64,000 bases of DNA from an uncultured Pirellulaceae bacterium (GCA_964486845.1 CAZAQY010000007.1:1688-65687); one strand, 5' to 3'. Positions 2,846 through 34,900 are shown, counted from the first letter of the stretch. A program made the numbers and translations. The notes: generated by a model not told the origin, from the letters alone.

Positions 2846-2849
2846 GGGG

Positions 2850-6933: not shown

Positions 6934-7041
6934 CGACGGACCATAATCCGGCCGGCACGCGCCGGCTTGGCACCGGACGGCAAGCCTGACGAGGCAGCGA
7001 CGGGAGAGACGATTTCCATCGCTCGCGCGTCGAGCTTGTTT

Positions 7042-8331: not shown

Positions 8332-8341
8332 GATCGCCCCC

Positions 8342-8899: not shown

Positions 8900-9027
8900 G
8901 ATCGACCTGTGCTCTCCGCCGAAGGCAGGTAGCAGGAGTGTGAACTTGGCGGCATCACCGAAGTGCGGTGCAGACACGTATCGAGTCGCGATCGGAAGTC
9001 GTTTCCGCCCGGACTCGCTTCCAGCCG

Positions 9028-9417: not shown

Positions 9418-9478
9418 ACCAAATCGCTCCCTATAGGAATGGATACTGTACGTCTTCCTGCGGTCAGTCGGAGCGTCC

Positions 9479-9985: not shown

Positions 9986-10106
9986 GGGACCGCCCGTGAG
10001 TCTGGCCGGGATGCCCTGATTGTGTCCGGAAACGACAAAGGGCGTAAGTATACTTGCCGCAGCCAGCATAGACAACCGTGAATCGAGCTTGGTAGGATAA
10101 CTCGTC

Positions 10107-10951: not shown

Positions 10952-10972
10952 GCCGGCTCCGTGATCCGTCTG

Positions 10973-13900
10973 CTACTGCGAGATTTCCGCGAGAATATCA
11001 TCCCACGGCGTGGCGTCCGCGAACGAGTCACCAATGTCCGCGGCGATCGAATCGAGCACGTCTTCCAGCCCGAAGCGATCGATGCGGATCGTGTCCCGCT
11101 CGGCGTCCCTGCGCAGGCGAGGTTCCGGCACCGCCGGCGGGAACACGGCGGTGCTTTCGCCATCGTCCAATCGCGCCGCCTCACCGGGTTGATCGAGTCT
11201 CGGCCCGGTCGCCAGGCTTGCACCCCAGGCCGGGGATGCCGCGGGTCTCTCCGGAACGAGGATCGGCTCACTCACGAAGGAACCTGCCGTGATCGCCGCC
11301 AAACCGGCCCATCCCTCGCCTTCGCCGCCAGCCGGTGAATTCAGCCGGTTGATCTCGTTGACCACGAGCAGGACGTCTCCCGGCTCGGCCGAACCGTTGC
11401 CGTTCACGTCGTAGAACGGAGCGCCCACCGGCCGGGGCACCGGCAACGCCGGATTGCCCGGATGGCTGTTGATGTAGTTGATCAACAGCAGGGCGTCGAT
11501 CGGCGACACGTATCCGTCGTTGTTCACGTCCCAGCGAAGGATGGGATTCTGCCAGTCCGAGGCCGGCTTGTCGACGATGCTGATGACGACCGTGACGATC
11601 TGCTGGCTGACCGCTCCATGTTCGTCCAGGGCCTGGTAGGAAAACGTGTCCAACGTGGAAATTCCGCCGTTGTGGCGATACGTGAAGGTGCCGTTGGCAT
11701 TCAGGGTGAAGCCGCCGCTGGCCGCGTACTGCGGTCCGGTCACCAGCCGCGCCCGCAACGCATCGCCTTCCGCATCGGTGTCATTGACCAGCACGCTGTC
11801 ATCGCCCGGTCCGTTGACCGTGCCGTTGACGTCGTTGGCGTTCAACACGCTGCCGCGCACGACCGTGTAGCCGTTGGGATCGATGTTGGCGATCGGCGCG
11901 TCGTTCACGCCCTGAATCGTCACCGTCACGGTAGCGACCGACGAGCCCACGCCGTCGCTGACCGTGTAAGTGAACTTCTCGGTCACCGTCTGACCGGCCT
12001 TCAACGCATCGAACTGCCCGTCGGGACTATAGATGATCTGGTTGTTGGCGGTGTTGGGCGGATTGATGACCACGCTGCCGAGCAAACCGGTATCGTCGAC
12101 AGCCACGACGATCTTCGGTCCAAAATCGTCCGTGTCGTTGAACAGCACATCAATCGTGACCGACTCGTCTTCGGTCGTCGTCACCGAATCGTCAGAGGCC
12201 ACCGGCGGATCGCTGGCCCCGAAAACGGTCACCGTGACGGCCGCCGTCGCCGTGCCGCCGTGACCGTCGCTGATGGTGTAGGTGAAGTAGTCCTTGGCTT
12301 CCTGGCCGATTCTCAGTGAATTGAAGGCCCCGTTGGGATCATACGTGACCGTGCTGTCCGCGTTGATGGAAACCCTGCCCTTCGTGCCGGCCAAGCCGAC
12401 CGAAGTAACTTGCAGCGCATCGCCGTCGATGTCCCGGTCGTTGATCAGCACATTGATCACCACCGTGCCGTTGCGGGGCACCCGGGCGCCCGTATCGGCG
12501 ACCGCCGTAGGAGCGTCGTTCAGGCCGTCGATGGTCACCGTCACCGTGCCCACGGCGGTGTAGCCGTCCTCGTCCTTGACGACGTACCGGAACGTGTCCG
12601 TGGCGGTCTGGCCCACGCCCAGCGACTCGAACTTGCCGTTGGGATGGTACGTGACCGTGTTGTTAAAGGTCCCCAGGTTGTTGACGCTCACCAGTCCCTT
12701 GGTGCCCACCGCCTGGACGCTCGTCACGGTGAGCCGGGTCCGTTCCGGATCGCTGTCGTTGGCCAGCACCGGGATCACCACGGGGCTGGCTTCGTTCGTC
12801 CGCGCGATCGGGTTCTGGGCCGTCCAGACGTCCGTCACGGCCTGTGGAGGATCGTTCAGGCCCTCGATGGTGACTGTCACGGTGCCCGTGCTGACGCCGC
12901 CGTGGCCATCCGAGACCTGATAGGTGAAGGTGTCGGTGGTCCTTTCCCCGATGTTCAAGTAGGCAAAGTTGCCGGCCGGATCATACTCCGCATAAGCTTG
13001 CCCGTTGGCGTCCGTCTTGATCGTCACGGTTCCGACGGTTCCTGTGTCGGCGGGGGCCAGGCTGACGAGTTCCAGTTCGTGCCTTTCCGGATCGGTATCG
13101 TTCGCCAAGACGTAGATGTTGGCCCTGGTGTCCTGATTGGTCGTGGTCGTGTCGTTGACCGCCGCGGGCGGGTCGTTACGGCCCTGCACGGTCACCGTGA
13201 CGGTTGCTCGGTTGGACAGGACGTTGCCATCGGTAGCCCGGTACGTGAAGGTATCCGTGCGGAATTGGCCGACGTCGAGGGCCTGCAACGCGGTGGCCGG
13301 GCTCGCGTCGTAGTAGAACGTGCCGTTCGGGTTCATGCTGACCCTGGCGCCCAAGACGGTCGCCATCTGGTAACTGGCCACCGTCAGCACGGCACCGAGC
13401 GTGGAGGGCACGTCATTGGCCAGGACGGAAGACAGCAGCGTCGTGCCCTTTTCGTCTTCATCGGACGAATAGGTATCGTTGACGGCTACCGGTGGTACTC
13501 CCGCCTGAATCTCCACGACGTGATCTTCGACTTCGCCGTCGGGCGCCAGTCCGGTGGGCCTCAGGCCCCCCAGGCTGCTGATACGAAAACGGCCGATCGT
13601 CCAGCCTTCCACCAGTTCCGCCGTTGGCACCACCTCGAACGCGTTAGGCCCGGCCCGCAACTGCTGGCTGGCGAAAATCTGCTCGCCGGGATCGTCAAAA
13701 TCACCGTCAATGTTGAAGTCGATCCAGGCGTCCAGCAGCCCTTCGGCCGACGCGGTGATGACCACCTCCGTGACGGAATTCAGGTTGAACTTGCCGATCT
13801 CCACACCGTCCTCATCATCGGTGCTCAATTCCAGTTGGCCGTTCCCCTGCGCGGTGGCCGCGATTCCGAGCCGGGCGCCCAGCACGGCGGATTGGACGGC

Positions 13901-16900
13901 CCGGACGAATCCTTCCTGGGTCGTGCTTCCGTCGAACACCAAGGGGATGTTGCCCCGTGTCACGCCATTGTCGAGCCTGCGGTCTTCGAACTCGAAGACG
14001 TACGTCATCGTGCGCGTCACCTGGCCATTGCTGGTGTACGTCACGTCGATGGTGAACGTGTCGCGGTCGAGAATGGGGTTTGCCTCGCCTGCCTCCGTCA
14101 AGCCATAGCCGGGCCGGATGGACATGGCGTCGCCGCCGAGGTGTACGGCACCGCCGCCGAGGTTACGGGGTTGCAGTCCCAGCGACAACCTCTCGCTCTC
14201 CGCCGCCACGGCCGACGCCGTCTTTTCCCCGATTTGATCGAAGCTGTCGCTGCCGGAGAACTGGATGACCGCAGCGTCAGGGACTCCATCCAGGTCCGCG
14301 TCCCACCATACGCCGTTGCTATCGAACTCAAACGTCGCGGTTTGATTGTTGTTGGTCACCGTGAAGATCGCCCCGTCTTGGACGCCGCAAACCAGCAGCG
14401 TCTGAGGCTGCGGGAACTGCATCACCGAGGGCGACAGCAACTGCACGTTCACGTTCGGGGGTATCGCCACGCGGAAGTCGGTGCGGTCGAGGGCGTCCTG
14501 ATTGTCGTCCCTGTTCGCCGTCCCTTCCTGGGAGACCTGGCCGTCGCGTTCGGCATCCACGCGCCGGCCGAGCGTAAGCGGGTTGTCGGTGATCACGTGT
14601 ACCGCGCCGTTCAGCCCCAACTCGGTCGGGTAGTGCCCGCCCTCTGTCTGCGGCGAATCGCCGAAGTCCATGTTCACGTTGCCGATGATGATGGTCATCT
14701 GCGTGTCGCCCGACAGCAGGTTCGCCTTGAGCGGATTGTCCGCGCGGTCCTTGATGCCCAGCCGCCGCTCGTTGCTGACGAACACGGGGTTCAACTCGGT
14801 GACCTGCAGCGCCTCCTGAATCAGCACCACGTCGCCGCCGGCAGGCAGCGGCGTGACGGCCAACGAACTGCTTTGGATTGCCCGGATGAGCGATACGGCG
14901 ACCTGCGTGCCGTCGTACAGGAACAGCTCGGGCAGCAGGAACGCCAACTTGCCGCCTCCTTGGTCCGTCATCGAGATTTCGACCCCGGCGTTGAGTGCGG
15001 CGGCGACGACGGCCTCGACAAAACCTTCCTGCGACGTGCGGTCGTCGAACAGCACCGGTATGTGGCCGTCGACCACGCCGTTCTTCAGCTGACAGTTCTC
15101 AAACTCGAACGTATACGACACGATCTGGCCGGCGCGGGTCGGCACGTCGATGGTCAACAGGTCGCCGTCCATGATCGGATTGGCCTGCCCCGCCACGCTC
15201 AAGGCGGACCCTGAGGCCACCAGCGCATCGCCGCCCAGGTGGACCCTTCCGCTGCCGAGGCTGCGAGGCCAGAGCCCCAACGCACGGGTCTCGCTCTCCT
15301 GGGCCACAACTTGCACCGTCGCGGCGGCGATCTCGTCCACGGTGTCGGCGGCGCCAAACGCGATGGGGACCGCGTCGATCGCGTAAACGCCGTCCGAGTC
15401 GTACTCGAACTTCGCGCTGCGTCCGTCGTTGGTCACGGTAAACGTCGCTCCGTCGCTCAGTTTCAGCTTGTCGCTGAGGGTCAGGACCAGTGTCAGCGGC
15501 TGCTGGAATTGCACCACGGTCGGCGCAGGCTGTGGGGACGAAATGGGCTGGCCGTACGCGTCCAGCAGTCTCATGCTGCCCGATACGTTCACCAAGTACC
15601 GCTCGGAATTCGAGTACTTGGTGTACATCCTCACCGGCACCGGAACCGCGGCCGGAGTTCCGGCGGTGCCGAGCACGCTCAGGCCGGGCGTCCGCGCCGG
15701 CACCGTCGGACTGGGCGGCGGCACGGTGGCCGACAAGGCGTGTCGCGAGGTGCCGTCCGTCGGCTCGCCCAGCAAGACGACGCCCAAGCCGGCGTTTACG
15801 GGTTTCAATCCGGACAGGGGCGCCGTCCGAATGGCGGCCACGATCTGATCGGCAAGATGGTCCGGGGACCGCGGATCCAGGCCGGGCCGTCCCACGGTTT
15901 TCAGGGACGTTCGGGAGACGTCGGCGGTGTACTTCGACGTCTCGGCCACGGGCTCGCCCAGCAACACGATGTCTCCACCCGGACTCACCGGATCGAGCCC
16001 CTGCAAGGTGGTCGAGCGGATGGCCGCGACAATGGCCGCCGCGATCTCGGGGGTAGTACTCGCCGGGGTGGTGCTCGTGCCGCTACTGTACGGCACCGCC
16101 TTGTTGCCCAAGGCCGTGCCGGGACTGCGGGCCGTGTCGTCGAATTCGAACGTCACCTGCCGCGTGCCATCGGAAAGCTTGAACGTCTGACCGTCGGCCA
16201 GGTAGGGCAATCCGCTGGCGTCGGCGGCCAGACGCGGACTCCCGTCGGCATTGGTGGGGATCCGCAGACCCCAACGCGAACTGTGAAAAGCGACCACGAT
16301 GTTCGGCGCCGTGGTCAGACCGGCGCCGACGCGGGCATCCAAGTCGTCCAACTCAAACGTCACGTTCCGTGTGCCGTCGCCGATCGTGAACATGTCCCGG
16401 TCCTGGACCCACGGCATGCCGCTGCCGTCATCGACCAAACGCAGCACGCCTGCACGGGTAGGAATCCGCAAGCCGAATGCCGAACGTACGCCTGGCTGGG
16501 CAGGCACGCCCGGTACCACGCTGTCCGCCAGCGTCAGACTGCTGTTCGCTACGTTGACGATGTGCACGAAGGCTGTGCCGCCCAAGTGTACGCGGCCGTC
16601 GGCCAGCGGAACGGGGGCCAAGCCGAGTTGAGCCAGTTCAATCTGCGTGGCGATCTTCTCCGCGATCTCCACATTGGTGTCCGACGCGCTGAAGTCGATC
16701 ACCCAGTTGTCCGGATTGCCGTCGCCATCGAGATCCACCCACTGCTTGTTGTCATCGAATTCGAAGGTCACGATCTTCGATCCGTCGTCGACCACGAAAA
16801 ACTGTCCATCCAGGATACCTTGGGATTGTCCGCTGCGTCTCAGCGTGGGGGCGCGCGAGACGTCGACGGTGTGCGCGCTGGTGCTCCCCAAGTGGACGAC

Positions 16901-19900
16901 ACCGCCGCCGACGCTTTTCGGGCTCAGCCCGATATTGGCCGACTTGAGCGCGGCGACCATGGCGTCCGCGATCTGGTCCGGCGTGTCGGTTCCGGTGAAC
17001 TTGACGAGGATGTTGTCGGGGGTTCCATCCCGATTGTTGTCGGCCCACACCCCATTGCTGTCGAATTCAAACACCTTCGTCTGGGTTGGGATTCCGGGAA
17101 TCGAGCGGCGGACGGTGAACGAGGCGCCGTCCGCGATGCCGCCCAAGGAACCGCCGGCGCTGGGCACGGTCAGCGTCAGCGTCTGCGGCACGCTCAGCGT
17201 ATAGCCGCTATCGATCTCGAAGGTCGCGACCTGGCCCTTCTTGTCCAGAATCTCGAACGAGGCTCCATCCAGCAATTCGGTGCCAGGCTCCGCCACCACG
17301 CGGAAATGGTCCGTATTGTTCAGTTCCACCGTGTAGACCCGGTTCGGCTCCCAAATGCCGGACAGTGGAGTAAGTACGATCGTGTCGCTGGTCGAGTTGT
17401 AACTGAACGCATAGTCGATGCCATCCACCAGCGGGACGCCGTCCCGCTTGAGGATCACGTTGCTGGAGACGACCGTCGCGTCTTCCAAGCCTGAACCGTG
17501 TTGGGCGTCGGCCGGCGGCACGCCGTCCACCAGGCGGATGCGGAAGCTGGAGTAGGCCGCCGAGGTGCCGAATTCCAGGGCCGTCGGCGCCGGGTTCTTG
17601 TCCAACCCGTCCGCGTCGTTGTCCCGAGGACTGACCGCGGTGGCCGTCGGTCCTACGAAGTCGGAGCGGTCCACCGCTCCTCGGTCCACGAACACGAACT
17701 CGCCGAATCCGGCCGGCGTCTCGACCTCCGGGTCGTCCACGCGCTGCTGTCCCGTCAGGTCGGTCGCCGGCGCCAAGATCGGCGAATCCGCGATCCCCAA
17801 CAGGTTCCTGACCTGCTGGAGGTCGAACCGGTCCAGCAACGAACCGATCGAGCTGTCGATGGCCGGGGACAATCGCGCCAAGTAGAAATGGCCGCTGGTC
17901 ACATCGCGGAACAGCGGATCCGCGGCGGCCAGGTGCAGAGCGAAGTCCTCGGTGATCTGGACAGCATTCAGGTCCGTCTGATTGCCCTGATACAACGTCC
18001 CCCCCACCACCGTGCCGGCCGCTTCCGAACTCGCATCGACGCTGATCCCTGCGGCCAGACCGGCCGCGATGTTGTTCAAAACCGTCGGGCTCGCGTTGTC
18101 CTCGATCGAAATGCCGGCGCCCAGCCCGCCGGCAAGCGTGCTGGCGACCGTCTGCGAAAAGACGTTGAAAAACGTGGTCGGACTCTGTCGGAACGCGTTG
18201 ATGTCAAACAAGGCGCCGCCGGTCTGCCGGGCGAACTGGTCGTAAGTCTGGGCCGTGTTGCCCGCGTAGGGCGCGTCCGGATCCAGCGTGATCCCGAAGA
18301 ACCGGGCGGACGCCGACCGCAGCGCAGTCAGGGCGGCTGTGAAATCCGACGTCAGGCTGTCGTCGTCCTCGTCGGTCACCATGATCGTAATGACCTGCGC
18401 ACCGGGACGGTTGAAACTGAACGTGGTTGTCGGATCAAAGGCGTTCAGCGCCTCCAGCACCGCCTGGCTGCCGTACTCGGTCGCCCCCGCCACGGGGAAG
18501 CTGTTGAAAGGACTGCCCGCCGCCACGAAGGTGCTGAACGGCACCAAGTCCTGGATCTGCTTGGGCGCACTGTTGGAATTCGCACCGGGAAACGTCACCA
18601 ATCCATACTGGGCGTCCACGTTTGCGGCCCGCATCTGGGCGTCGAAGGTCGGCAGTTGCCGCCGCAACTCCACAATGTCCTGCGCCAGGCTAGGCGACGT
18701 CGCGATCATGAACACAATCTCCACCGGCGCCGCCGTGGCGTTCGGCGCGATGCCGCCGTAGATGGTGTTGTTGACGATCCGTCCGAACGGAACCGGCCCC
18801 ACCTGGCCGCCCGGCGGATTCACCTCGCCCGCGAAACGGATGCCGCCGCCCTGACCCGTGGCCGGATCTCCGTTGTAGGCCAGGATATTGTTGGCGATCA
18901 CCACGCCGGGCACTAGGTTTCCCGTATTCAACTTGGGCGTGTTCCGGACCGGCCCCGCGTGCGGGATGTCGCCATCCTGTCCGTCCCGCGCCCCCGGTGC
19001 GACGTCGATCCCGTACCGCGCCGAATTCGTAATCGTGTTGCCGTGGATCAAGATCTGGCCTTGGTCGCGGAACAGATTACTGTCGCCCTGGCGGTCGTAC
19101 AAGACAAAATCCGACCCCGTCGAAGCGCCGAACGTGATTTCGATCTGGTAGAAGCCCGTGTTGCCTTCGCTGCCGCTGCCCTCGATCCGGGGATCGTAGG
19201 AGCGGTTGTCTTTGCCGCTCACGCCGACGTAGTACGTCCCTGCGACGACCGGCGTGAACTCCAGGAACGGATCCAATCGCAAGAACTCGCCCGGCGCGGC
19301 GTCGTTGTCGCTGATGGCTAGTTCGTTCCCATCGCGGTCGAAGATCCGCAAAATGGCGTCCAGCGGCGAACCGATTTCGTGAGCGTCGACATCCACGCGC
19401 AAGGTTTCTCCCGCCGAAAGTGCGACCTCGAACAGATCGACGTCAAACCCCGGGCGCAACGGGAAGTTGGCGTTGTCGCCGATCATTGCGCGACCCAAGT
19501 AAGCGGGCGAGTTGATTCCGAAAATCTGGGTCTTGGTTGCGCCGGCGAACGTGTCGTTGGTCTCGGGCACGTCCGTCGCGTGCACCTGCAGCGTGACCGG
19601 GCCGAACAGGTTGACCCGGTTGCTGGTGCTGTACATCGGACTTCCGCGGCCCGTCAACGTGCCGTCGCTGAGGGAGGCGGTCACGTCCAGTACGGCCTGC
19701 ACGTCGGGCCCGTTGACGGCGTCCCGGATGCGCCGCGCGATCAGGTCGTCAGGATCGGCCGGCGTGAACGGAATGCCGATGACGCCCGGCGCCGGCGGGT
19801 TGTTGGGGATGGTGGTATCCAAGTACTCGAAATCGACATGGCGGACTCCGTCGCTGATCCGGAAGGTCTGACGGTTGGCGATGTCCAAGCCGCGCTGAAC

Positions 19901-22900
19901 CACCAGCGTCACGCCGGCGGCCAGACGGTCGTTCGTGTCCACGCTGACCGGCACCGTTTCGTTGGTGAGATCGGACCCGCGGCGGATTTCGAGTTGGTAC
20001 GCGCCCTCGATGCGCCCGGTGCCGTCCGGTCTGTCGACGAACGTTGAACTGGTGTCGGGATCGGCGTTGTTCGTCCGTTCGCCGCGTTCTGCGAAGCCGA
20101 TGATGAAGTCATCCAGGTAGACGCCCTCAAACCGATTGCGCTGCCCCCGCGTCGCCGACTCGAAACCTCCCATCGCGTCGCCCGGCAAGTACGCGGTCGG
20201 ATTGGGGGCGTTGGCGGCGTCGGGAAGAACGTCTTCAAAGCCCAACGGACCGGCGTCGACGACCTCGTGGCCGATGATCCGGATCAGGTCCTCGTCCTGT
20301 TTGACAATATCCGTGGGCGTTTCCAGCCGCAAGGCCGCGCCGACGTTCGACTGGAATTGGATCTCCCAGGGGAAACCGGACGCATGATTCAGCTCCACGC
20401 GCCGTTGATTCGCCGTGCCCCGCGCTCCCGAACTGGCTTGGATCTCCAGATTCAGCGTGCTGTTGATCGACGCGACCATGGCGGACGCTACGTCGTGGGC
20501 GGTGAAATCAAAGCTCGGCGAGAAGCGGACCGGAATCCGGGGCGTTTGACCGCCGCGCTCTCCCGTGGCCACCAGGACCGTCGGCTCGAACTGGACGGCG
20601 AAAACCGAGGGATCGCCGCCCAAGGTCACGACGCCGTCTCCCAGATTCACCGGCTGCAAACCGGGAACGAAGTTCCGCACCGTTTGGGCCACCTGAATCG
20701 CAATGCTGTTCTGGTCGGCGCCGCCCACCACGAGTCGTTCCGGTTGCTTCGGATTCACGGTGACGGTCAGCCAGGATGCGCCGCGGATGGCCGCCGCGAT
20801 CCGCTGGGCCATCTCGCGGGCCGGCGTCGGATTCTGGCGAGGAGTCGCGGTGAGATCGCCCGGATCGAACAGGATGGGATTGGGACCGGGGATCTGCGGC
20901 GTCCGCACGTTGTCAAAGGTGAACGCCACGAGTTTCCCGGCATCGTAGAAGCTCAGTTGCTCGCCTTCGGTGTACTGGTCTCCCCGCCGGGCGGTCAGGG
21001 ACGTCGTCTGGAAGGTAACCCGGAAATTGCCGGCCCGCACGGCCCCGTCATTGTCGAACTCGAACACGTAGTCCGTGCCCGTCTGCGAATTCGTAATCGT
21101 GAAGATCTCCTGGTCGATCACGCCGCCGGCTCCGCCGCCCAGTGCCGGCACGCGCAGCTGCAACGGGGCGCTTGCGGGATCCATCTCCAGGCTCGTGGTC
21201 AGTGTCAGCGCGTCGTTCTCGTCCGTGCCGCCCAAGTCGATCAGGCCGTTGGAGAGAACCGCGGGATAGATGAACAAGCCGGACACACCAGGCGACAGAT
21301 GGTCGACCGTTGCGGTTGCCAAGGCATCCCGGGGCAGCATGTCGAAATCTCCCGCCCCGGCGCGGACGATGACCGTATTGAAATTCCCCAGGGTGGCCGT
21401 CAACCGTGAAGTGGAGTCGGGTGGGTCGGCGAACACATGATTGAGCGCGTTGAAGATCCGTTGGGCCATCACCGCGGCCGGCGTGGGAGCAACCGGGTCG
21501 AACGCGATTGGATTAGGTCCGGCAATGGTGGTTGTCCGCACGTTGTCGAACGTCACGGTGACCCAGCCGCCGCCCGCCGGATCGAAGAAGCTCAGCTGTT
21601 GCCCTTCCACGTACTGGTTTCCAGGCAACGCTTGGATCTTCTGGGACCACAGCTGGATGGGGATGCTCCCCGGCGTCACGACGCCGTCCTTGTCGTACTC
21701 AAACCGCACGGTTTCCGCGCCTTCTGTCGCGTAAAAGGCCTGGCCGTCCGGGATGGGGCCGCCTTGACCGGACTGCGTCAGTCCCGGCGCGCTGGCCGTG
21801 TCGAGCCGGTGCGTGGCTGTCCCGCCGACATGGATCTTGCCGTCGCCCAAGTACTGGGCGCTCAAGCCCAGCGAGGTTCGATTGATTTGGTGGACAATCT
21901 CGCCGGCGATCTGTTGCGGAGTGCTTCCCGAAAACACACTCACGGCGGCGGCGCCGGTCGCCACCTGCCCGTCCAAGTCGAACTCGAACGTGATCGTGAC
22001 GGGGAAAGTCAGGGTGTAGTTAGCCGAATTCACGCCTGCGTCCACCACCAGGTCCACCACGCCGTTGGACCGGGTGACGGGCGTCATCCCGGCGACGACA
22101 CTGTCCACTGCGTCTCGAATCCGATTCGCGACGCGGCCCCGGCTGTCCTCCGGCAAGAACGAAATGCCGATGGGCTTGATTTCTTCCGTTTCCGTGGCGC
22201 TGGGCGAAGTACTGATTACGCCGTCGCTGTCCAATTCGAAGACGTAGCGGGTAACGTAGCCCGGCGTGCCGGCCGCCTGGCAGTGGGTGACATCGTCGCC
22301 TTGGCAGACCGAGATCTGGAACCACTCGCCGTCGGTGACGCCGCCGCTGCCGCCGCCGGCAGCGGGTACGCGCAGTTGTAGGGGGGGCAGCGACGGATCA
22401 CGCAAGCTGGTCCAGCCATTGGTGATGACGAACTGGTATCCGTCGGCCAAGACGTCCGTCTGCCCTGTTTGCGACAGGTGCGTCCGCGACGTATCCAGCG
22501 TGACTTGCGTGGCAGGGTTTGAGTCGTAGGCGATCGCGCCCAGGTGGACGCGGACCGGACCGGTCGACTTGACGGGCGCCATGCCCAGCCCCGGAACATT
22601 CTGCAGCACGGCCAAGATGCGGTCCGCCAGTTGGTCCCGGCTGTCCGTGCGCTGGAACGAGATGCGGATGTGCTGGAGCGGCTTCCCCGGAGACGACGGT
22701 GTGGGGCCTAAGACTCCGTCCGAGTCAAACTCGAAGACGAACGTCGTCGTGGGCGTGTCGATCGTAAACCGTTCCGTTGTCGCCGTGTTGTTCTCGAGGA
22801 TCTTCTGGCCGCTGGTCTTCCTGTTGGGCGTGCCGAGCGGATCGTCGGCCGGTGTTTGCAGCGACAGGCGGCCGGTGCGGAACATCGCCGCAGGCGAACT

Positions 22901-25900
22901 AAGGGTCAGAGAGGAGTTTGCCCCGCCCCCGAGATCGATGTTTCCGGCTCCTCCCAACATCGTCGGGGAGACAAACAGCGACGATTGGTTAATGGCCTGG
23001 AGGATCGCCCGACCGATGGCTTCGGGACCGTCGGCGTTTGAAAAGGCGATCGCAATGTTGGGGACGTTCAGTATGCCAATGGCCTGATCGAATCCGACGC
23101 CGTTGGCAAAGGCGATGTCCTCGAACTCAAACGTCCGCGCCAGCGAGCCGTCGCCGAGGATGAACGTCTCGCCGTCGACGATGCCCCCGTCGGGCACGTG
23201 AATCATCAGCGGATCGGGCAATTGCATGGACAGCGTTTCGGGCAATTGCAGCGTCACGGCGGGCGAAACGCCGGGTTGGCCGTCCGGTTCGGTGAGGAAC
23301 GTATATGCCTGGCTGCTGAGCGTGACGCCCGGGCCGCCGAACACGGCCACGCGGCCGCCGCTGAGCCGTCTTGTCTCCAACCCCAACTGGCTGCTCAACG
23401 GGTGGTTTGCAACCGCTGTCATCACCGCCCCAATCACGGCCTCCCGGTCGTCCGAGTCGCTGATGCTCACGGGCCAACTGACCTCTCCCACCGGCGTCGG
23501 CAGCAGGCCGCGCACCTTGTCGAACTCGAAACGGGCCGTCGCCGCGCCGTCGGTCAACGAGAACGCAGCACCATCGCGGAACGCGCTGCCACCGCTGGGC
23601 GGAACCTCCAAAACGTAGCGGACCGATTGGGTCAGCGTGCTCCCCGGGCTGATCGCCAGCGTCGAACCGCGCGAACCGCCGATCTGGACGCGGTTGCCCG
23701 TCAGCACCGCGGGCGTCATGTTCAAGGAGGAGCGCAGCGGGTGGCTCTGCACTGCTGCGACCACCGCCCGCGCGACGCTGAGGGCGTTGTCCAGATCGGT
23801 AATCGAAATCGCAACGGCTTCCGAGGCCAGATGAATCAGGCTGTTGTCCTTATCGAACTCGAACGTCGCCGAGATCAACCCGGAAGAGTCGGTAAGGGTG
23901 AAGTAGTCCCCATCCTCGATTCCGCCGTCGGCGACGACGCCGCCGCCGATCGGCACCGCCACGACGTACCCGCTGTCGAACTCGTAGGTTGCGGCGGCGT
24001 TCACGCCGTCCTCCAGTACGAACGAATCCTCGTCGTGGTAGTGCAACCCGTTCTCGGTGATGATGGTGGGATTGTGCAGCCACGACTCCAGGACGCTGTC
24101 CAGACTGTCCGCCACCCCCACGCGATCCATGTCGGTGTTGATCGTCACCAGGGCGCGATCCAGGGCGTTGGGATCGTTCAGGCCATACACGCCCCGGATG
24201 ACGATCGGCGAAGCGCCGCCGGAACTCAGCGTGATCCCCTTCACGCCGGAAACGTTGACCAGATTGGTCCGCACCGCGCCCGGCGGGATCGAGGGGTTCT
24301 CGTAACCCAGATTGCCGTTCAGGTGCGGAGCGACCATCGGCGCCAAATCGCCGCGTGCCACTGCCTGGCGGATTGCCAACGCGATCCGCTCCGCGACGTC
24401 GTTGGCGGTCTGCTTGTCACTCACGAAGATCGGAACCACGTTCCGCGGCTGGAACGGCGAAATCCCGGCTGCAAACGTCGCCGCGAGTCCGGCGGTCCCT
24501 TCGAGCACCACGACGTTCTCGTCGGGAAACGCTCGCTGGCTGGCGACGACGTTCAGTCCCGACCCGGAAATGGCCTGGAGCAGGCCCGGACGAGCGCCGG
24601 CTTCCAGGGGCGGCTGCGACTCGACCACCACCGGCGGCCCGCCATGGACGATCTCGTCCAGCGTATCCGTGGGGAAAAACGGCACGGCCAGGTTGCCGTC
24701 CGCCACGCCCGGCACGCCGGAGAGCGTCAAACTGGGGGCTGCAGCCACATCGACGGTGTGGTCCACTCCGCCGGCGGCGTCCAGGATCGCGACCAATCCG
24801 CCCTCCAGAACGGCGGCCCGCAGTTGGCTGCCGGGGAAGTTGGCCTTGATCTGCGCGTTGATTTCCTCGGCGATAAAGGACGCGATGTCCTCCGCATCCC
24901 TCGGCGTTCTCGTCTGGTTCACCCCCAGACTGCCGCTCGCCGTACCCAGCGAGTGCTCCGGCCGGGTTCCATCCAACACAATCACACCGCCCTGAACTTC
25001 TGCGTCAGCAACCTCGTGCAGACGCAGGTGCAAGTCCACGGGATCCGTCGGGGCAAACTTCACCCAGCCGTCCGTTTGTCCATCGGCGGCGTCGAGGGCC
25101 GCGATGATCCGCTCGGCCAACTCGCCTTGGGTCGGGGGCTGGAAGCTGTTGCTGACGTTGACGGCGGCCGACGTGTCCACCGCGTGAAGGATGGTCGACT
25201 TGTCCAAGACCACCACCCCGCCGCCCGCGTTCTTGGCGTTCAATTTCAGCGCCCCGGCACGCGCCCGGATCGCCGCCGCAACGCGGTCCGCCAGCTGGTC
25301 CTGCGTCGTGAAATGATCGAACGAGATCACGTTGGAACCGCTGCCGGCCACGCCGTTATTGTCGAACTCGAACACCTCGGCCGCGACGCCGCGGCCAAAG
25401 CCGTCGGGATCGATCCGGAAGGTGTTGCCGTCGCGCACTCCACCCACGCCGCCGCCGGCGGCCGGCAGAAGAATCGTGCGGTTGTTGGCGACGTTGATCA
25501 GCAAGTTGCGGGGGCTGAGCCGCACCCCGTCCTTGTCAAACTCGAACACATACGTTGTGATCCCGTTGCTCAGGCTCATCATCTCGCCATCGCTGATCAG
25601 GCTGCCATTCGCCGGAGTCAGAATGGTGAGGTTGTCCGCGATATTGATCGGCGTCGCATCGGGCCCGGGCTCGTCATCGATGTCAATCAACTCGCCGTCT
25701 TTGTCAAACTCGAACGCCAGCGGCAAGTTCTCGCCGTCTCCGTCCAGGTCGACCAGGAACGTCTCCTGATCGGCGATCGCCGCCCCGCCGGCAGCCGGAA
25801 CGTGGAGGATGTAGCCGCTGTCGTATTCAAATGCCTGCGTGCTGACGCCGTCGCTGACGTAGAACACGTCGCCGTCCCGCAACTGGGAACCGTCGGTGAC

Positions 25901-28900
25901 GATGATTTCGGAATCCGTGAACAGGTTGTCCACGAACCGCAGCGTAGCGGAGCCGTCCAGGGCATCCGTGATCGTCATCTCCTCGCCGATCATCCTGGCG
26001 AGAGCCGCTCCGGTGGGCGCCACGATCGTCAGGCCGCTGTCGAACTCGAGCGTCCGCTGGCCGATCTGCACCGTTTCGCCGTCGTCGATGAACAGCCCCG
26101 CCACCGCGCGCAGCTCGAATCCCGTGGTGTTGACGTCGCCGACATTGAAGTCGCCCGCCGTGCTGAAGTCGATCCGCAAGCGGAGGTTGGTCCGTCCGGC
26201 GTACTGATCCAGCGGCACGCGGACCTGCCGCCAATCGCGCACGTCGAACGCTTCCTGGACGTCAAAATACTGAACTTTGTCGTCCGGCGTCGTCGGGACG
26301 TGGGATTTGCCCAGATCCAGCAATTCGTTGCCTACGGTGGCGGGGGGAACCGCCGCTCCGGTGTAGGAATTGTTCGTCACCAGCAGTTGCCAGTCGCCGT
26401 TGTTGTCCGCAACATAGACCCGGAAGGCGTCCCGCATCATGGCCGAATTGGGCACCAGGGGATCATTCGGATTGCTGCTGTCGTTCTCCGTGTCCAAGTA
26501 GTAGCTGAAGTACAACACCGGCCGGTCCGCCGCCGAGTAGCCCTTCAAACTGAACTCGTTGCTGACGATCGTGCCGTAGGCCCCGCCGGGAAAATCATAG
26601 GTCCGGGGGGCGCCGTTGACGTTGCCGCGGCCGAAGTGCAGGCTCGACGTGCCCACGTCGGAGCCTTCGTGCCCCGGATCCAACTGCCGCTTGTCCACCA
26701 GGATCGTCTGGCCCTCCACGACGTTCGGGAGGATGCGCTCATCCATGGCGTCCGCATAGTTCAAGCTCGGCAAGGTTCCCGTGCGGTGGAACAGGTTCTC
26801 GTCCAGCGTGGAAAACGCCAAACCGCGCACCTCGGAGGGATGCAGCCCCGTGCTCACGCTGGTGGCCCCGTTGACAAACACCGGTTGGGCCTCGCCGCTG
26901 GTATCGAACGCGTACAACGTTCCCGCCGCGTCGGTGGCAAACAGCATGTCCGCATACCTGCCGTTTTCCACATTCGCCGGACCGGCTGCCAGTCCGGAAA
27001 ACCGGATGCCCAGCAAGTCATCCCGCGAGGAACGAATGTAGGCCGTGCTCACGTCCCCGATCTCGCCGGACTGGTCCAGCGGGTCATCGACGCGGTACAA
27101 TCCGCCCTCGTCACTCACCGCGTACAGCACCCCGTTCAACGTCGCCAGACCTCGCACCTCGCCGCCGGGTCCTTCGCCTTTCACGATCAAGGACGAGCTG
27201 TTCGTGATGCTGCCCCGGTTCAACCGCACGTACTTCCCCCGCGCGGTGGCCTGAATGCCCAGCGGGTTGAGCGTCTGGTTGATCGCGTTGGCGATCTTGT
27301 TGGCCAAACCGATCTGAGTGCTATCCGGCGTTCCGTCGAAGTTGACGTCGACGGTGTGGTCGACCGGCCAATCGTCCGCCCGCAAAGGAATCCGGATGTT
27401 ACCTCTCGCCACCCCGTGGACGCTGGTGGTCACCTGCCGCCAGATCTCCGGCGCCCCCAGCCGGTTCATCCCGGAAAAGTCGGCGGTGACCGCGTCGGGG
27501 AAGGTGAGCCGGTCGATGAATCCGCCGGCCCCGCCGATCCGATATTCGACTTGTGCCCCGACCACCGAGGCGATTTTCGTCGCGATGATGTGGTCGGACA
27601 TGTTTCGGCCCCTGGCATCATTCGGACCGAGAGGGTATGCGACGTTAAGCGTGTAGTCGGTCGGCATGTTATAGGTCGCCGCCAAAGCAACTCCGCCGTT
27701 GTACCAGCGGTCGTAGGCTTCCTCGATGTTGGAGATCAGGGCGAACCCAAGCCCGTGCCGAGTCACATCCAGGATTCGCGAACTTCCCGGGGTAAACACG
27801 AGCGGGCTGTCGGCATTGACGACCAGACGATCGTTGACCACTTGCGTCGTGAAGATCGGGAACAGCGGATTGATCCTGCTCAGCGTTCCGGTGATCGCTG
27901 CGCTCATCTGGGTGACCACCTGAGCGGCATCAAACGTGTTGCGGGTGTCCGTCAGGTCGATCAGAATCGCGGGGGGAACGGCCGCTGGATTATCAAGACC
28001 CGGCCTTCCGCGAGGCGTGATGTGCGGCGTGCCCGACGTCACGCTGTGGCGGAAACTTCCCACCGGCACGCCGTCATCTCCGCCCAGATGAATGATGCCA
28101 TCACCGAGATTGCGTACCGGATAGGCGAACAATGCCTGTTGGTCAATGGCGTTCGCGATGGCGTTGGCGATCTCGTCGTGTGTGTAACTTTGCTGGAAGA
28201 AGACCGGGATGTTGTTGACCGGATCCGTGAGCGTCGTATCCGTGGTCATTTCAAACACCCGTGTGCGTCCCCGACCGTCGCTGATGGTGAAGGTGTCGCC
28301 ATCGACGATCCCCTCGTCGTCATCTCCCAGGACCGTCAGCCGTGAATCCGTGGGTACGACGACCCTGGTCCTGTTGATGGTTCCGAGGTGTACTACGCCA
28401 CCCGTCTGGACGGTGGGAGCGAGGTTCAAGAGGCTGGGAGCTGCGTACTTCTGAACCTCGACGAGGATCTTCGTCGCCAACTGATCGCTCCTGTCCGTGG
28501 CCAGGTACGCGATGGGATGATTGCCCGGCGTCGTGATGCCGTTCAGGTCCATCTCGAACGTCCGGGATTGCCCCGTGACCAGGTTGCTGATGGTGAACGT
28601 GTCGCCGTCGATAACGCCTCGCCCGCCGATCGGCGGCACCTGGATGGCGTACCGCACCGGCGTTTCTAGGGTATACCCCTTGTCGAATTCGAATTCGTAC
28701 CTCGTGTTCAAGTACGTTAGGGAGAAATCATCGCCGTCCGTGATCTGGGAGAAATCCACACCTTGGAGGATGGGGGCGTAACCCCCCGTACCCTCAACGC
28801 GCACTCGCTGCGTCATGGGGGTGGTCGTGACTAAATCGACCACCGAGGCCACATCCCCGACCAGCGTCACGCGATTGCCGCTCGCAAACGCTGTGACGTT

Positions 28901-31900
28901 AAACCGGTTGCCTGCCACGGCGGAGACCGAATTGATCTCGAGCGCCAGGTTGCTGGCCGCGGCCAAGCGGTCGACTCCGGCCCATAGCCAGTTGTATCTA
29001 TTCGCGGCCGAATCTGCGGGTAGCGGAAGGGTTCGGTCGAACAGGAAGGTCCAGGCGAAGGCACCGTCGCTGATCGTCACCGAGTCGCTGGTTGCGGGCC
29101 ACAGGTCGATGACGATGGTGGACCCCGTGTCAATCTGGAAAACCGTGTTATCCAACTGGAAGAAGTTGCCGTCTCGGATCGAATTCGCCCCGGCCACGTC
29201 GATCGTCTGGATGACCTCGGGCCCGGTATCGAACTCGAAGGTCGTTTGATTCGCGCCGTCCACCACGGTGAAGGTTTGGCCGTCGCGGATGTCCAGCGCA
29301 TTGGCCTTGCCCGGCGGCGGAACCAACCGGTCGTCGTCACTCACCCGCGTAATCCCCCCGCCCGACGCGTAAACCGCCTCGATCCGCGGACTCGTCAGGA
29401 TCTCACCCCGTTCGCGTATCTGAGTGCCGGCGCCCAGGTACAGCGGGTCGGTCGCCGAGCCCGTGCGGTCGATCCCTGACCCGCTGTGCGCCTGGCCGAA
29501 CGTCGGGCTCGACTGCCGGCCGTCAAACTGGTACAGGATGTTGTTGGCGATCTCGACGCCCGGCAGCGCCTGCGGGCTGTCGGCCAGTCCCCGTTCACCC
29601 ACGGCCAAGCCGACCGTATCGAGCTGGGAACCGGCGGCTGCCTTGTAGAACGTAAGCGCGTTGAATTGAATGCCGTCATCCGTCCGGTACGTGATCCCCG
29701 AAACCGGATCTCGGGCGTAAGTCACGATTCCGTCATCGAGGATCTGGCCCGCGAACGTCGCGTCACCGGGATTGACGTGCAGGAAGTTCCCGGATTGCGC
29801 GTCGACGAGCGCTTGCCGGTACGAGTACAGCCAGCCGTTGGGGTGCATCGCGATGTCTCCGGTCTCGACCGTGACTGCCCCCCCCCCCAACGACCCGACG
29901 TTCGTCTCGAGTGCCCCGGTGAACGGATCGATCGTCACCAGTTCCGACAGGTTCGTAACCAGCGGGTTCGGCGCGCGATACAGATACAGGGTGACATCGC
30001 CCAAGTGATAGGCCACCTCGGCCTGGTCACCGAACAGCAGCGAAACCTGGGGCGGATCGGCCGTCGACGTGTTGCCCACCTCGATATGGTCTTCGGCGAT
30101 CCGGCGGATCGTTTCAACCGGCTCCAGGCGGATGTCGGGATTGGTCGCGATGGCCCGCACGAACTGGTCCAGATCGCTGGGCATCCGCCGGTCGGAGGAA
30201 ATGGCGACTTGATACGTCCCCGTGGGCAGGTTGACGACGCCCAAGAAGGGATCGCTGGCCCCCACGGTGCCGCGCGACAGGTCATCGATATCGGCCGAGC
30301 CGGGCGTAGCGGGCCGGTCCTCGGCGATGTTCCCGTCGCGGGCCGTCAGGATCAAACGCCCTGCGCTGTCGTAGACATGAATCGACACGTCGGGGCGATC
30401 GCCCAGTCCGTTGGCATAATCGACATCGAAAATGGTGCTGAACAGACCGATGGCGTCGGGATCCAGGTAGTTGATGTTGAATTCGTAGAAATCGACGTCG
30501 GTTCCGGTCAGATTGCCCGCCACCGAGATGGTTCCCCGGTCCGAATTCAGCAGGTTTCCCACGCCTTGCGCCGTGGCCGTCGAATCGTTGGCCGACGCGC
30601 TTTCGCCGCTCTCACCGGACAGCGGCGAATGGCTCGGCTGGCCGCGGACTTCGATTCCGTTGGTGGCGTAAGCGATCGTGGCATAACGCACGGTGGAGCC
30701 GCCGATTTCGTCCACTTCGCGCAGGCGGACCTGCAACTGGTAAGCGCCGGCAGTCAGCGGGGCGGTCAGCCGTGCGCCCGCCGGCGCCGTCTCCGGCTGG
30801 AGGCGGTCTGCGGCCGCCAGCGTCAACGTCTGGTCGTCGGCCAGGCCGGTGATGGTGTACACGCCGTCGTTGTGCAACGTCCCGCTGATCACCAGCCCTT
30901 GTCCGCGGGCGAACCCGGCGTTGCGGAAATTCCCGTTGGTCACCGTGATCGTGTCGGGCTGCGCGCCGTTGTCGTGGAACGTCAGTTCGGCATCCTCGTC
31001 GGCGAGGAACGTGGGCCCGTTGCTGAGGACCCGGATGTGGTAGGTCAGCGGACGCTCCGGATCTTCCGGGTTGGGAACGCCGGGCAGCACCACGCGCAAG
31101 CCGGGGTCGCGCGGGTTGGTCGTGTAGAGGTCCTGTTGGGGAATCTGCGGCGTCTTGAGCATCAGGCGGGCTGCGCCCCACAGCAAGCTGGGGTCCGCCA
31201 ACTCCCGCTCCGTCAAGTTGTCCGCGGTGCGATCCTGAGGCTCCAGGAAATTGTTCGGGTTCGATAGTTCGCTCGGCGAACTGATTGAACGGGCCAGAAC
31301 CTTGCCGTCGCTGTCCAGCAACTCGATGACCGCATCCAGCGCGTGGGTCGTGCGGTCGATGTCGATCCAGACCTCGGTGCCGGGAATGGCCTTGACGCTG
31401 TAGACGTCCAAGTCCCGCTGATCCGCCAAAAAGCCCTTGATTGTGAATCCCAGACGGCGGTTCTCGTCGGCGGCATACTCCGAAGGCGCCAGGATGCCCA
31501 ACAGTTCGGCGCCGTCCGGCGATCCGTTCGGTCCCGGAGAATTGACGTCGCGGGCTTCTTGCTCGTACAGGGTCTCGACGTTCCGGTCATGGCTGAACCG
31601 GTCCAGCAGCACGCTGTTCCAATCGCCGGGCTGCGGCGCCTGGGCGTTGGGATAGTTTGTGGGGTCGCGGAAATCGCCGTCCGCGTTGGTGTCGTTCTGC
31701 GGGCTCCCGTCCAGACGCACTCCCGCCGAGTGGCGGTCGTCGCGCAGCGACGTCAGCACGACGGGCGAACCGGGCTGACCCAGGATCTGGATGATGCCGC
31801 CGATGCGGTCGTCGATCTCGTGAGGGATCCCCGTGGCCACGAACCCGATTTTCTTGGTGTCGTTTTGGTTGTTGTCCAGCATCTTGACCACCAGGCTCTC

Positions 31901-34900
31901 GGTGGCGTTGCTGGCCAGGACCAGGCCTCCAAAAGTGTGGAAGTCGGGCACATAGACCGTGTCCAATAGAACGTGGACGATGTCGGTGTCATCCCACACG
32001 CTTTGCGTGGTCAGCGTTTGGCCGCGAACCACCATGCCGTTGATCTCGTTGTTGTCCAGCCGATTGGCGAGAATCAGCGGCCCCTGGTTGTCGCGATAAC
32101 CTCCCACACGGTCGATCGCTCCGGTCGTGCGCCCCGTGTCCCGTTTCAGGACGTAATTCAGGGCGTTGACGTTGATGCTGATCGCCGGAACGGCGACGTT
32201 GGGATTGCTGGGGGTGTTGGTGCGGTCTGCATCGGGGTTGTTGCGGAAGATGTTGTTGTAGATCACCGGCTGTGCCTGCCGCACGAAGACCACGCCCGGT
32301 TCGTTGAAGCCTCGGCCGAAGCGGTCGAGTTCGCCCTGGCCGCCCTGGCCGGGCCCGTTGAACTCGAAAATCGAATTGGCGACCCGAGCCTCGGCGTGGT
32401 CGTGGACCTCCACCACGTTGAAGCCCGTGAAAGTGCCCTCGACGCGCGTCACGCCGCCGCCGTAGGCGAACACGGCGTGATCGATGCTCAGGTTCGACAA
32501 GTGCCCGACGTAGATGCCGCCCCAATTGCCCGCCGCCGGATCGTTCGACGTGCCGGTGATGATGGCGCCGTCATTTCCCGTATCGAAGTTGCCGCCGGCG
32601 CCGTAGCGATCATCGGAAATCGAGGTGAAGATCATCTCGCGTCCGTCACTGCCCTCGGCGATCATCTGCGCGCCCATCTCCAACTCGAACCGCGCGCCGT
32701 CCAGTTTCACGACGACCGAAGGATCAATCATCAACCGGGCGTCCGGCCGCCCGTGCAAAACAACGTTGTCCAGAACCGCGTTTTGAGGGATCTCCCGGTA
32801 CCGCGGATCATCGGCCGGACCGTAACTCCCGTCGTCGTCGAACTGCGTCAGGGGCGAGTATCCGCCCGTGCTCAGCGTGTCATCCAATTCCGCGATCAGC
32901 TGGTACTCGCTGTAACCGTTGCCGTCGCCCAAGTCCACGCTGCGATAGATGCGCCGTCCGACGAACCCTTGCGCCGGGGCGGCCAGCGGCAGGTTGTCGA
33001 GCGTGACAATTCCGTCACCGGGCGTTCCAAATTCCGTGGGATTGCCGGTGATGGCGATCGCCGCCGTCGCGTCGGAGGCCCGCGAGTCTTGGCCGAGCGA
33101 ATCCACATAGGTAATCCGATATCGGTACGTGCCGGGCAGCAGGCTTCCTGACGGATTGCTGGACAGAACCACCCCCGTGACGGGCGGCAGGTCGAGGAAT
33201 TGGCCACGCGTCTTTCCCACGTCCTTGTAGGTCGCGTCCAGACGATTTAACTCGGCCACCAAGGCATAGGGCCCTTGGTTCTCGCTGCGGTACAGGCGGC
33301 GGGCGACATACCCGGAGGGCGCCGGCGGAAGTTGTGTGAACTGCACCGCGCGTCCCGTCCCCGTGAGCGTCACCGCCATGTTGACCGACGCCGGGCTTTC
33401 ATAACCGAACCGATCGACGTACACGAGCCGGTACGAGTACTCGACAGGCGTGAGTCCCGGGTTGAGACTGCCCCCGGTTGCCGGCGTCATCACCACCAGG
33501 GCCACCGCGGGCGCGGTGACACGCTCCAGCGCTCCGCCGGGTTGGGAAGCGATCGCCAGGTTTTCGCTCATGATGTGGACGATGTCCGCGTCGTCCCAGC
33601 GCCCGGAGACGGTCAGCTTCTGAGCGGTGCTGCCGGCCTGGGTGCCTATCCGCACGAACAGGCCGTTCACCGAATTGTCGACGAGTTGGTTGTGATGGAT
33701 CTCCGGCCCGATCCGCTGGTAGTCGGAGGTAAACGGGATCCGCTGGTGACGCGGCGAGTGGAAATTGGTTTCCTCAAAACTGTCCGGACTGGCAGAGATC
33801 GCCGCGTCCGCGCTGCGGTAGATCCGGTTGTACGTCAAGGTCGGCCGGGCGTCCGTCAAGTGAATCGGATTGATCGTGCGGGGCACCGAATTGATCAGCA
33901 CGGTGCCGCCACCGTACCGAATATCGGCGTAGTTCATGTAGTTCAGGAAGATGCCCTCTTCCTCGTACAGGAAGGCGCCCTGGGAGCGGTCGACGTCGTT
34001 GCGGAACTCGATCCCGCCCCAGTCGCCCGCCGCCGGCGAAGTAACGTACGGATTCGTGTCCAGACCCACGTCCTGATCGTTGTACGACGTGAAGTACACG
34101 CTGCCCGCCGCCTTCGCGCCGCTGCCGCTCTGCACCACGGCGTCCCCGAGGTCCAAGCCTCCGTTCGCGTTGCTGTCCGTCAGCAGGATGGGAGTGCCCA
34201 GCACCTGGAACGCTCCGCCGCTGCGGTCGATGCCCACCGCGCTGCTGCCGACGCCGATGCGAGCACGCCGCATCTGGAAGATCGCCCCCGCGTCCACCAT
34301 TACGGTCACGCCGCGGGGGACCTCCAACGTCGGACCGTCCGGCAAAGGCGCGCCCAGACTGTTGAAGCCGATCTGATAGGCTTTATTGTCGGCCAGCGTG
34401 GCCCAATTCGCGTCGCGGCCCGGGTTGCCCACAACGCGGACGATGTCCCCCGGACCGGCCTTGCTGAGCGCCGTGGCCAGATTGTTGTACGGGGCGCTCA
34501 GCGTGCCCGATCCCGAACCGGTCGCCGGCGCGTACGACTTGTCTACGAAAATCGTCTCGGCCGCGCTGGTCGGCGTCCCACTCAGCAGCGCCGGCGCCGT
34601 CTTGAACCAGAAGTTGTAGACCCCGCCGGGAACGCCGTCCCCGTCGCCGTCCAGGAACGTGGGACCGCTCGGATCGTTCGGATTGTCGATGTCGGCGATC
34701 GCTTCCTTGACGTCCGGACGATAAGTCAGCCGCAGTTCGTACTCGCCCTGCGTCGTGCCGCCGAACCCGGAATCCTCGATGGCCGGGTCGTACTCCTCGT
34801 TGCCGCTGGCACTCACGCCGACGTAGTACGTGCCGGGAGCGAGGTCCAATTCCAGGTACGAGTCGCGGCCAAAGTAGTTGTCGTTCCGCGCCAGCAGTTC

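Follow-up and report, generated by a model that had tools for sequence, protein, structure and literature searches.

Giant genes of Planctomycetota lie mostly among the genes for surface proteins (PMC5177795), and huge proteins with Big_9, Cadherin and Dockerin domains are concentrated in the same group (PMC11573180). Among the closest described systems are the tandem Ig-like or cadherin-like extender domains of giant bacterial adhesins (Big_9, Cadherin_4, tandem-95, BapA/LapF-type), all-beta sandwiches of about 90 residues that follow one another in series and are near-identical in tandem. Here we describe a window of 64,000 nucleotides from an uncultured Pirellulaceae bacterium (GCA_964486845.1 CAZAQY010000007.1:1688-65687), analysed as a whole, in which one open reading frame (ORF) of 8,838 amino acids (aa) carries a repeated module belonging to a genuine and undescribed family of extracellular repeat domains, within a familiar kind, the repeat domains of giant bacterial surface proteins. 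Functionally this is like the extender-domain adhesins, since many domains stand in series in an acidic, secreted and giant protein, and dockerin and cadherin-like repeats co-occur (PMC11573180); extender-type domains are in fact present at the C-terminus of the protein itself. Unlike an extender domain, however, the module is predicted to be alpha/beta with a helix, no extender hidden Markov model (HMM) matches its arrays, and its copies share only 23-53% identity and are separated by long variable linkers.

The repeat region at 13820-29293 of the window corresponds to aa 2733-7890 of the giant protein. The first-pass annotation had counted about 32 occurrences of a hairpin expression and about 30 copies of a bipartite module of ~100 aa. 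All of the example strings that it quoted are present in the protein, but its regular expression, taken literally, fits at only 3 places, or at 10 when it is relaxed. An HMM seeded on 8 clear hairpins and iterated on the giant protein until convergence finds 27 copies of xDGxxFxIxDG…FEFD, which begin at aa 2734, 2914, 2956, 3058, 3867, 3902, 3962, 4016, 4486, 4521, 4634, 4767, 4908, 5049, 5165, 5243, 5455, 5873, 6736, 6783, 6890, 7028, 7097, 7344, 7438, 7702 and 7805. As a control the giant protein was shuffled 20 times; 18 shuffles gave no match and the other two gave one match each. A second HMM, covering a strand, the amphipathic helix and the Gly-flanked strand, converges on 21 copies and finds none in any of the 20 shuffles, and a window-by-window self-BLAST outlines matching repeat-rich regions and, apart from them, the C-terminal cadherin-like repeats. 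With 27 hairpins and 21 strand-helix-strand segments the repeat is real, but judged by the intervals between hairpins and by full-module HMM scores only about 19-20 copies are complete, with both halves; another 8 are short hairpin-only units and 4-5 are solitary strand-helix-strand segments. The complete copies include two with an extra inserted hairpin of ~60 aa (starts at aa 5243 and 5455), which are paralogues (DNA repeat D8, 72%), and a divergent pair (7438 and 7806). The module measures ~85 aa (family median 81) rather than 100, and its copies fall into three arrays where the first-pass annotation had placed them (Table 1). Arrays and linkers together span ~41% of the ORF and the modules by themselves roughly one fifth, where a third had been estimated.

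Tandem Repeats Finder detected no DNA tandem repeat in the giant gene, and the copies resemble one another at the DNA level only over stretches of 30-70 nt with 60-88% identity that cover the codons of the conserved motifs, in keeping with the divergence at the DNA level noted earlier. Four of the short units (aa 2914, 3867, 4486 and 6736) run on as FE.D.GY.L.VP…VP..GG and are placed at the starts of arrays or sub-arrays. A tighter expression, F-E-x-D-x-G-Y-x-L-x-V-P, catches two of these four starters and has 114 occurrences, spread over 90 of 175 family proteins. Three stretches made of a short unit and two full modules (aa 2905-3144, 4478-4726 and 6725-6980) align with one another over their whole length at 29-34% identity, and therefore part of the array grew by duplication of this triple unit. 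A linker motif, L.L.VP..GGG..GG, recurs ahead of many module hairpins (for example at aa 4748-4770, 5033-5050, 5440-5456 and 6762-6785) and may form an extra strand, which is modelled at low confidence only.

From an input alignment of 15 internal copies only, AlphaFold2 modelled the module at aa 6783-6875 as one compact alpha/beta domain with a mean predicted local distance difference test score (pLDDT) of 91.3 and a predicted template modelling score (pTM) of 0.81. In the modelled topology an N-terminal hairpin (b1-b2), whose first strand bears D-G-x-x-F-x-I-x-D-G and whose second bears F-E-F-D, is followed by a variable loop, a third strand (b3, I-x-F), an amphipathic helix of 15 residues (T-x-x-x-I-A-x-x-I-x-x-A-I) and a small closing hairpin (b4-b5, L-G-L-x-P-x-x-L-G-x-G-x-V-x-L-G-G). 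Both halves are packed in one confident model, and therefore they form one domain; as modelled, the module is an independently folding domain, neither two domains nor part of a solenoid, and the idea that its halves might belong to different known domains, raised with the first-pass annotation, is not borne out. In a model of 256 residues, containing a short unit and two modules, each full module folds separately with a pLDDT of 80-90 and the linker between them (residues 149-165) falls below 50, which fits a predicted arrangement of beads on a string.

No Pfam or NCBIfam model scores above threshold on the arrays, whether the whole protein, sub-segments of it, 15 single modules or the family consensus is scanned, and the Cadherin-like, Big_9, VCBS and tandem-95 models match the C-terminal aa ~8000-8640 only and nothing in aa 2733-7890. 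Profiles of 15 or 78 diverse modules found no significant sequence match in the PDB, Foldseek searches of the module models against the PDB and BFVD gave no match at E <= 0.001, and no description of the module was found in the literature. The predicted alpha/beta fold has no significant counterpart among solved structures. The first-pass opinion that the module is neither cadherin, Ig, FN3, VCBS, HYR nor another named repeat was thus right for the arrays, and these searches gave no confident HMM or structure match of the whole module to a described family; "unrecognised" needs the qualification that the second half faintly resembles Flagellin_IN, below threshold, as discussed further on.

The first-pass annotation had also proposed building an HMM of the copies and scanning for its distribution. 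Our exhaustive HMM search covered 1.84 billion cluster representatives and found the module in 1,591 of them at E<=1e-3, in 663 at E<=1e-10 and in 224 at E<=1e-30. Lengths of 5,000-8,000 aa are common among these proteins, and a single protein may hold as many as 24 copies. The hits inspected for source were the best 150 of the 1,591, and every source-named member among them belongs to Planctomycetota (Pirellulaceae, Pirellulales, Planctomycetales, Planctomycetia). Named members are labelled by other domains (tandem-95, PPC, Ig-like, choice-of-anchor L, DVUA0089, VCBS) or as hypothetical. Of 174 retrieved proteins, nearly all of which are hits of this search, the majority of those that reach 3,000 aa also match the non-repeat N-terminal, middle and C-terminal regions of the giant protein. 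Of three relatives scanned, one carried the complete C-terminus of GEVED, cadherin-like repeats and dockerin, one carried GEVED and cadherin-like repeats but no dockerin, and a partial one showed only a pre-peptidase C-terminal (PPC) match. Judged by the hits inspected, the module occurs mainly in one family of giant proteins.

Word-indexed protein searches with the 15-module profile, a 256-aa segment and the 78-module profile returned only 2, 1 and 3 short proteins, respectively, and it was the exhaustive search of representatives that revealed the family. The one short protein that was traced (P0001) comes from the giant gene of a relative, of which it is a fragment. In the relative L002, a 94-kb metagenome contig from the European Nucleotide Archive, the orthologous giant gene at 1-15636 has been split by gene calling into more than 20 short ORFs, which is why the proteins returned were only 120-440 aa long; the fragmentation probably stems from assembly frameshifts.

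The family HMM has 88 positions and draws on 1,338 copies. Across 817 near-complete copies the most conserved positions of the family are alternating aromatic and aliphatic residues. Position D7 is kept in 87% of copies, G8 in 84%, F11 in 81%, F22 and E23 in 94% each, F24 in 83%, A56 and A62 in 78% each and G79 in 75%, and I13, D25, I44, I59, I63 and V81 are conserved as well. When 16 modules of the giant protein were compared, 14 had a nearer copy in another protein than any paralogue within the giant protein itself, and for the module at aa 5869 such nearer copies exist in 109 other proteins. The arrays are therefore old and position-specific and not fast-evolving, so that of the "old or fast-evolving" expansion proposed in the first pass the former part stands and the latter does not.

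As to the role of the modules, we lean towards the reading that they are self-folding beads that form an extended extracellular stalk or spacer, which we infer from architecture only. In this arrangement about 20 domains would be strung together in three arrays by linkers of 10-60 residues rich in Pro, Gly, Ser and Thr, and a short hairpin-only unit would open each array or sub-array. Such beads on a string would give a long, acidic and cysteine-free extracellular stalk, spacing the C-terminal end, where the GEVED, cadherin-like and dockerin domains would be the likely attachment or binding region, away from the conserved N-terminal region of ~2,700 residues and the PPC/beta-helix-like middle region. 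Since the arrays are ancient and position-specific, individual modules may also have specialised surfaces. The evidence that the protein is extracellular is indirect and consists of a Planc_extracel-like motif, the GEVED, cadherin-like and dockerin domains, the published surveys and a composition that is acidic (1087 Asp and Glu against 585 Lys and Arg) with few Cys (4 in 8,838 residues).

Several points weigh against a passive stalk of this kind or limit how far it can be taken. The Glu of FEFD is invariant and probably surface-facing, and together with the conserved D7, D15 and D25 it suggests a functional site for an ion or ligand and not a passive spacer. The short unit is poorly defined in the 256-residue model (pLDDT ~50-60), and the AlphaFold2 geometry between modules, from an alignment that holds no inter-domain information, is unreliable. 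The protein showed no signal peptide of the classical hydrophobic kind, and its Planc_extracel match is below the Pfam threshold. A restriction of the module to Planctomycetota is likewise not proven by the best 150 of 1,591 hits.

It is possible, if on the doubtful side, that the modules are instead binding units, with a putative acidic patch (D7, D15, E23, D25 and D27) for Ca2+, a polysaccharide or a partner protein, and that the giant protein serves in multivalent adhesion or capture. Strong conservation of the acidic positions E23 and D7, which by their alternation with the core Phe residues should face outward, speaks for such a function, as does the position-specific conservation across species, which suggests non-equivalent and specialised modules, and the flanking cadherin-like and dockerin domains are Ca2+-dependent in established families. 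Three modules of the giant protein bear an extra DxDxDG-like loop after the hairpin (DNNRDGTPD at aa 6783, DLDGDGNPD at aa 6889 and DADLDGVPD at aa 7702), and this insert may be an accessory Ca2+ site; but it is rare, being found in 13 of 928 family copies, and we rejected a Ca2+ loop as a general property of the module, since it is an occasional insert and not a defining feature. Scans with Pfam, the PDB profile and the consensus also found no likeness to carbohydrate- or Ca2+-binding families.

A stalk of beads and a set of binding units both treat the module as a family of its own, and a further reading, which we consider unlikely, is that it is a very divergent Flagellin_IN-motif domain, related to the flagellin and FliD outer domains and to the surface domains of phage tail sheaths, in a protein that builds or decorates a filamentous appendage. 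Four independent weak signals agree on this, namely the Pfam consensus, PDB profile, PDB Foldseek and BFVD searches. The best Pfam match of the family consensus is PF07196 (Flagellin_IN), at 13.0 bits and E=0.12 where the gathering score is 22.7, and the second half of the consensus alone reaches 14.7 bits (E=0.036) over profile positions 13-30 of 55. The best natural PDB matches of the 78-module profile are FliD 6iwy at E=0.007, which is sub-significant, and the tail sheath proteins 8fop, 9hz7, 9cb9 and 9khy at E=0.04-0.6, with all of the FliD and sheath alignments falling on the strand-helix-strand half. By fold, the two-module model comes closest in the PDB to flagellin FliC 4nx9 (E=0.076), followed by FliD 9u4r and 9m67 (E~2). 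The BFVD matches are phage proteins that include a baseplate-J-like protein and a tail sheath (probability up to 0.99 and template modelling score up to 0.64 among these matches; the tail sheath itself at E=0.15 and probability 0.33). Tail sheath chains were not among the PDB Foldseek matches listed.

The likeness can be followed into the motif, since Flagellin_IN also has a strand, an amphipathic helix T..(I/V)A..I..AI(N) and a closing strand or hairpin with G-x-(V/I)-x-L at its end, and it too belongs to surface-exposed parts of extracellular assemblies; in the tail sheath outer domains (8fop_T, 9hz7_L and 9cb9_A) a segment V.I.V.aGDT..qIA..IvaAI…g.itL aligns to b3-helix-b4 of the module. 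Against kinship, every signal is below significance, the Pfam match spans just 18 of the 55 profile positions, PF07196 is absent from the matches of each of the 15 single modules even at E<=10, and nothing in the Flagellin_IN motif or in any of the matches corresponds to the hairpin half (DG..F.I.DG…FEFD). A strand-helix-strand with an Ala/Ile-rich helix is also easily convergent. No flagellin, FliD or hook Pfam family occurs anywhere in the 8,838-aa protein, which lacks the terminal helices of flagellin and FliD and carries instead a self-contained domain about 20 times in one chain. The sheath domains differ in their context as well, and tblastn of the family consensus against 50,697 phage records was empty. 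We regard the likeness to flagellar and phage-tail surface domains as a lead, possible but unproven, and not as membership. A broader version, in which a new fold-level family shares ancestry with the flagellin, FliD and tail-sheath IN-motif domains, the giant proteins build or decorate a filamentous surface structure of Pirellulales (perhaps the fibres at crateriform structures) and the modules are specialised binding surfaces, has in our view only an outside chance.

That the pattern is a by-product of biased composition (a protein rich in G, D, T, A and V from a gene of 64% GC) or of a spurious ORF is effectively refuted: the strict expression does match only 3 times and high GC does fill the opposite strand with many spurious ORFs of great length, but shuffled sequences yield next to none of the 27 and 21 copies observed, the fold is confident, 1,591 proteins are homologous, above-threshold Pfam domains lie in the same frame, and 986 codons compared with a 94%-identical uncultured Pirellulaceae metagenome-assembled genome (MAG) give a ratio of nonsynonymous to synonymous substitution rates (dN/dS) of 0.14.

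Table 1. Features of the giant gene in the 64,000-nt window; residue numbers refer to the 8,838-aa translation, and bit scores of modules are from the full-module HMM.
Feature	Position in window	Strand	Evidence and remarks
Giant ORF	10973..37489	-	8,838 aa; sole such ORF; homologues of 5,000-8,000 aa alignable over N-terminal, middle and C-terminal regions
Motif MQIERLEERQLLA, aa 66-81, resembling Planc_extracel	37247..37294	-	PF07595 E=8.3e-4, 19.4 bits, below gathering score 25.5
Array 1, aa 2734-3142	28064..29290	-	2 short units and 2 full modules
Full module aa 2956-3043	28361..28624	-	73.6 bits
Full module aa 3058-3142	28064..28318	-	83.0 bits
Array 2, aa 3867-5952	19634..25891	-	4 short units and 10 full modules (1 without most of the hairpin, 2 with inserted hairpin)
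Full module aa 4015-4102	25184..25447	-	71.4 bits
Full module aa 4521-4611	23657..23929	-	78.9 bits
Full module aa 4634-4724	23318..23590	-	69.0 bits
Full module aa 4767-4861	22907..23191	-	72.7 bits
Full module aa 4900-4989	22523..22792	-	84.3 bits
Full module aa 5047-5154, long hairpin loop	22028..22351	-	73.9 bits
Module aa 5164-5229, without first hairpin strand	21803..22000	-	56.9 bits, profile positions 18-91
Module aa 5243-5421, ~60-aa inserted second hairpin (Y.EG.QLSF.D…V.F.FDNVRT)	21227..21763	-	Both half-HMMs
Module aa 5454-5627, inserted hairpin as in aa 5243-5421	20609..21130	-	Both half-HMMs
Full module aa 5869-5952, just upstream of PPC domain	19634..19885	-	62.6 bits
PPC domain aa 6016-6092, between arrays 2 and 3	19214..19444	-	PF04151 E=1.2e-7, 32.9 bits
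Array 3, aa 6736-7892	13814..17284	-	2 short units and 7 full modules (2 divergent)
Short array-starter unit aa 6736-6782	17144..17284	-	Hairpin, then FEIDSGYTLSVP…TLTVPSAGG
Full module aa 6783-6875 (the modelled one), loop insert	16865..17143	-	101 bits
Full module aa 6889-6977, DxDxDG-like loop	16559..16825	-	Module HMM; separate bead in two-module model
Full module aa 7096-7184	15938..16204	-	77.6 bits
Full module aa 7343-7425	15215..15463	-	84.2 bits
Divergent full module aa 7438-7520	14930..15178	-	Hairpin HMM; 51% identical to aa 7806-7892
Full module aa 7702-7790, DxDxDG-like loop	14120..14386	-	102.7 bits
Divergent full module aa 7806-7892	13814..14074	-	25.7 bits
GEVED domain aa 7920-7992, directly after array 3	13514..13732	-	PF20009 E=4e-10
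About six cadherin-like/Big_9/tandem-95/VCBS repeats, aa ~8000-8640 (limits approximate)	11570..13492	-	Big_9 1.9e-90, 298 bits; Cadherin_4 4e-78, 258 bits; NCBIfam tand_rpt_95
Dockerin type I domain aa 8654-8714	11348..11530	-	PF00404 E=6.8e-11, 42.6 bits

With cadherin-like/Big_9 and Dockerin_1 domains above threshold, the giant protein has the C-terminal domains and the taxonomic placement of giant planctomycetal secreted proteins, and a giant planctomycetal ORF is also what the first-pass annotation had taken it for. A locus search with a single segment gave the uncultured Pirellulaceae MAG mentioned above as the nearest species-representative genome, the 94% being amino-acid identity. At the other end of the protein lies the Planc_extracel-like motif, and 54 of 175 family proteins have a similar one within their first 150 aa. 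The first ATG of the ORF adds 36 residues (MLLLLAAILRWRYVGQWRSKTKTLDPQQAGHTRGWF, aa 1-36, window 37382-37489, minus strand) ahead of a second Met, and downstream of this Met37 lie an Arg/Lys-rich stretch and then LERLEERQLLA, the motif that resembles Planc_extracel; the true start of the protein may be Met37 (window 37381). On the plus strand opposite the giant gene, 12410-36103 holds many long ORFs of up to 1,715 aa (for example 23198-28345), which we take to be shadow ORFs typical of high-GC coding sequence and not genes.

The N-terminal region of ~2,600 residues (aa 81-2700, 29390-37249, minus strand) has no significant Pfam or PDB match, its weak matches being a sub-threshold DVUA0089/FDP_fam at aa 848-922 and a weak PPC at aa ~2028-2072. 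It is kept in 77-88 other giant proteins at up to 69% identity and amounts by itself to a large dark region. The middle region (aa 5950-6740, 17270-19642, minus strand) shows a weak right-handed beta-helix match at aa ~6453-6495 and an Ig-like-looking segment before array 3, and no other non-repeat part is as widely conserved, since it matches 133 of the 174 retrieved proteins. A phmmer search of the PDB with the N-terminal 2,620 aa and with aa 5950-6730 gave no match.

The genes flanking the giant gene are housekeeping genes (dipeptidyl peptidase IV, FabA-like, ketoacyl synthase and S-adenosylhomocysteine hydrolase). The FabA-like and ketoacyl-synthase genes lie just downstream of it (7042-10258, minus strand), and in L002, a distant relative, genes for FabA, an acyl carrier protein and a ketoacyl synthase (17635-19938) lie near the 3' end of the giant gene, beyond a gene for a phosphoenolpyruvate-utilising enzyme. 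We rejected these neighbours as functional partners and read them as conserved synteny with no obvious functional link. About 9 kb upstream of the giant gene, 46823-48109 (minus strand) encodes a TadE/TadG-like protein of Flp pilus assembly, which carries Tad_C as well as a weak VWA domain.

That giant surface proteins should hold new repeat domains is to be expected, and this finding alone opens no long-standing question. Planctomycetota are, with that said, unusually rich in giant genes whose products are almost entirely uncharacterised, and current annotation names such giant proteins by small C-terminal domains or as hypothetical. With a domain model of ~85 residues, much of the sequence in at least 1,591 protein clusters would gain an annotation, and the dark regions that remain in this giant protein family would be easier to delimit. 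A single module, predicted with confidence to fold on its own, would also be a manageable size for solving a structure and for assays of binding. The value of the module therefore lies mainly in annotation and in the entry that it gives to structural work on a large dark protein family.

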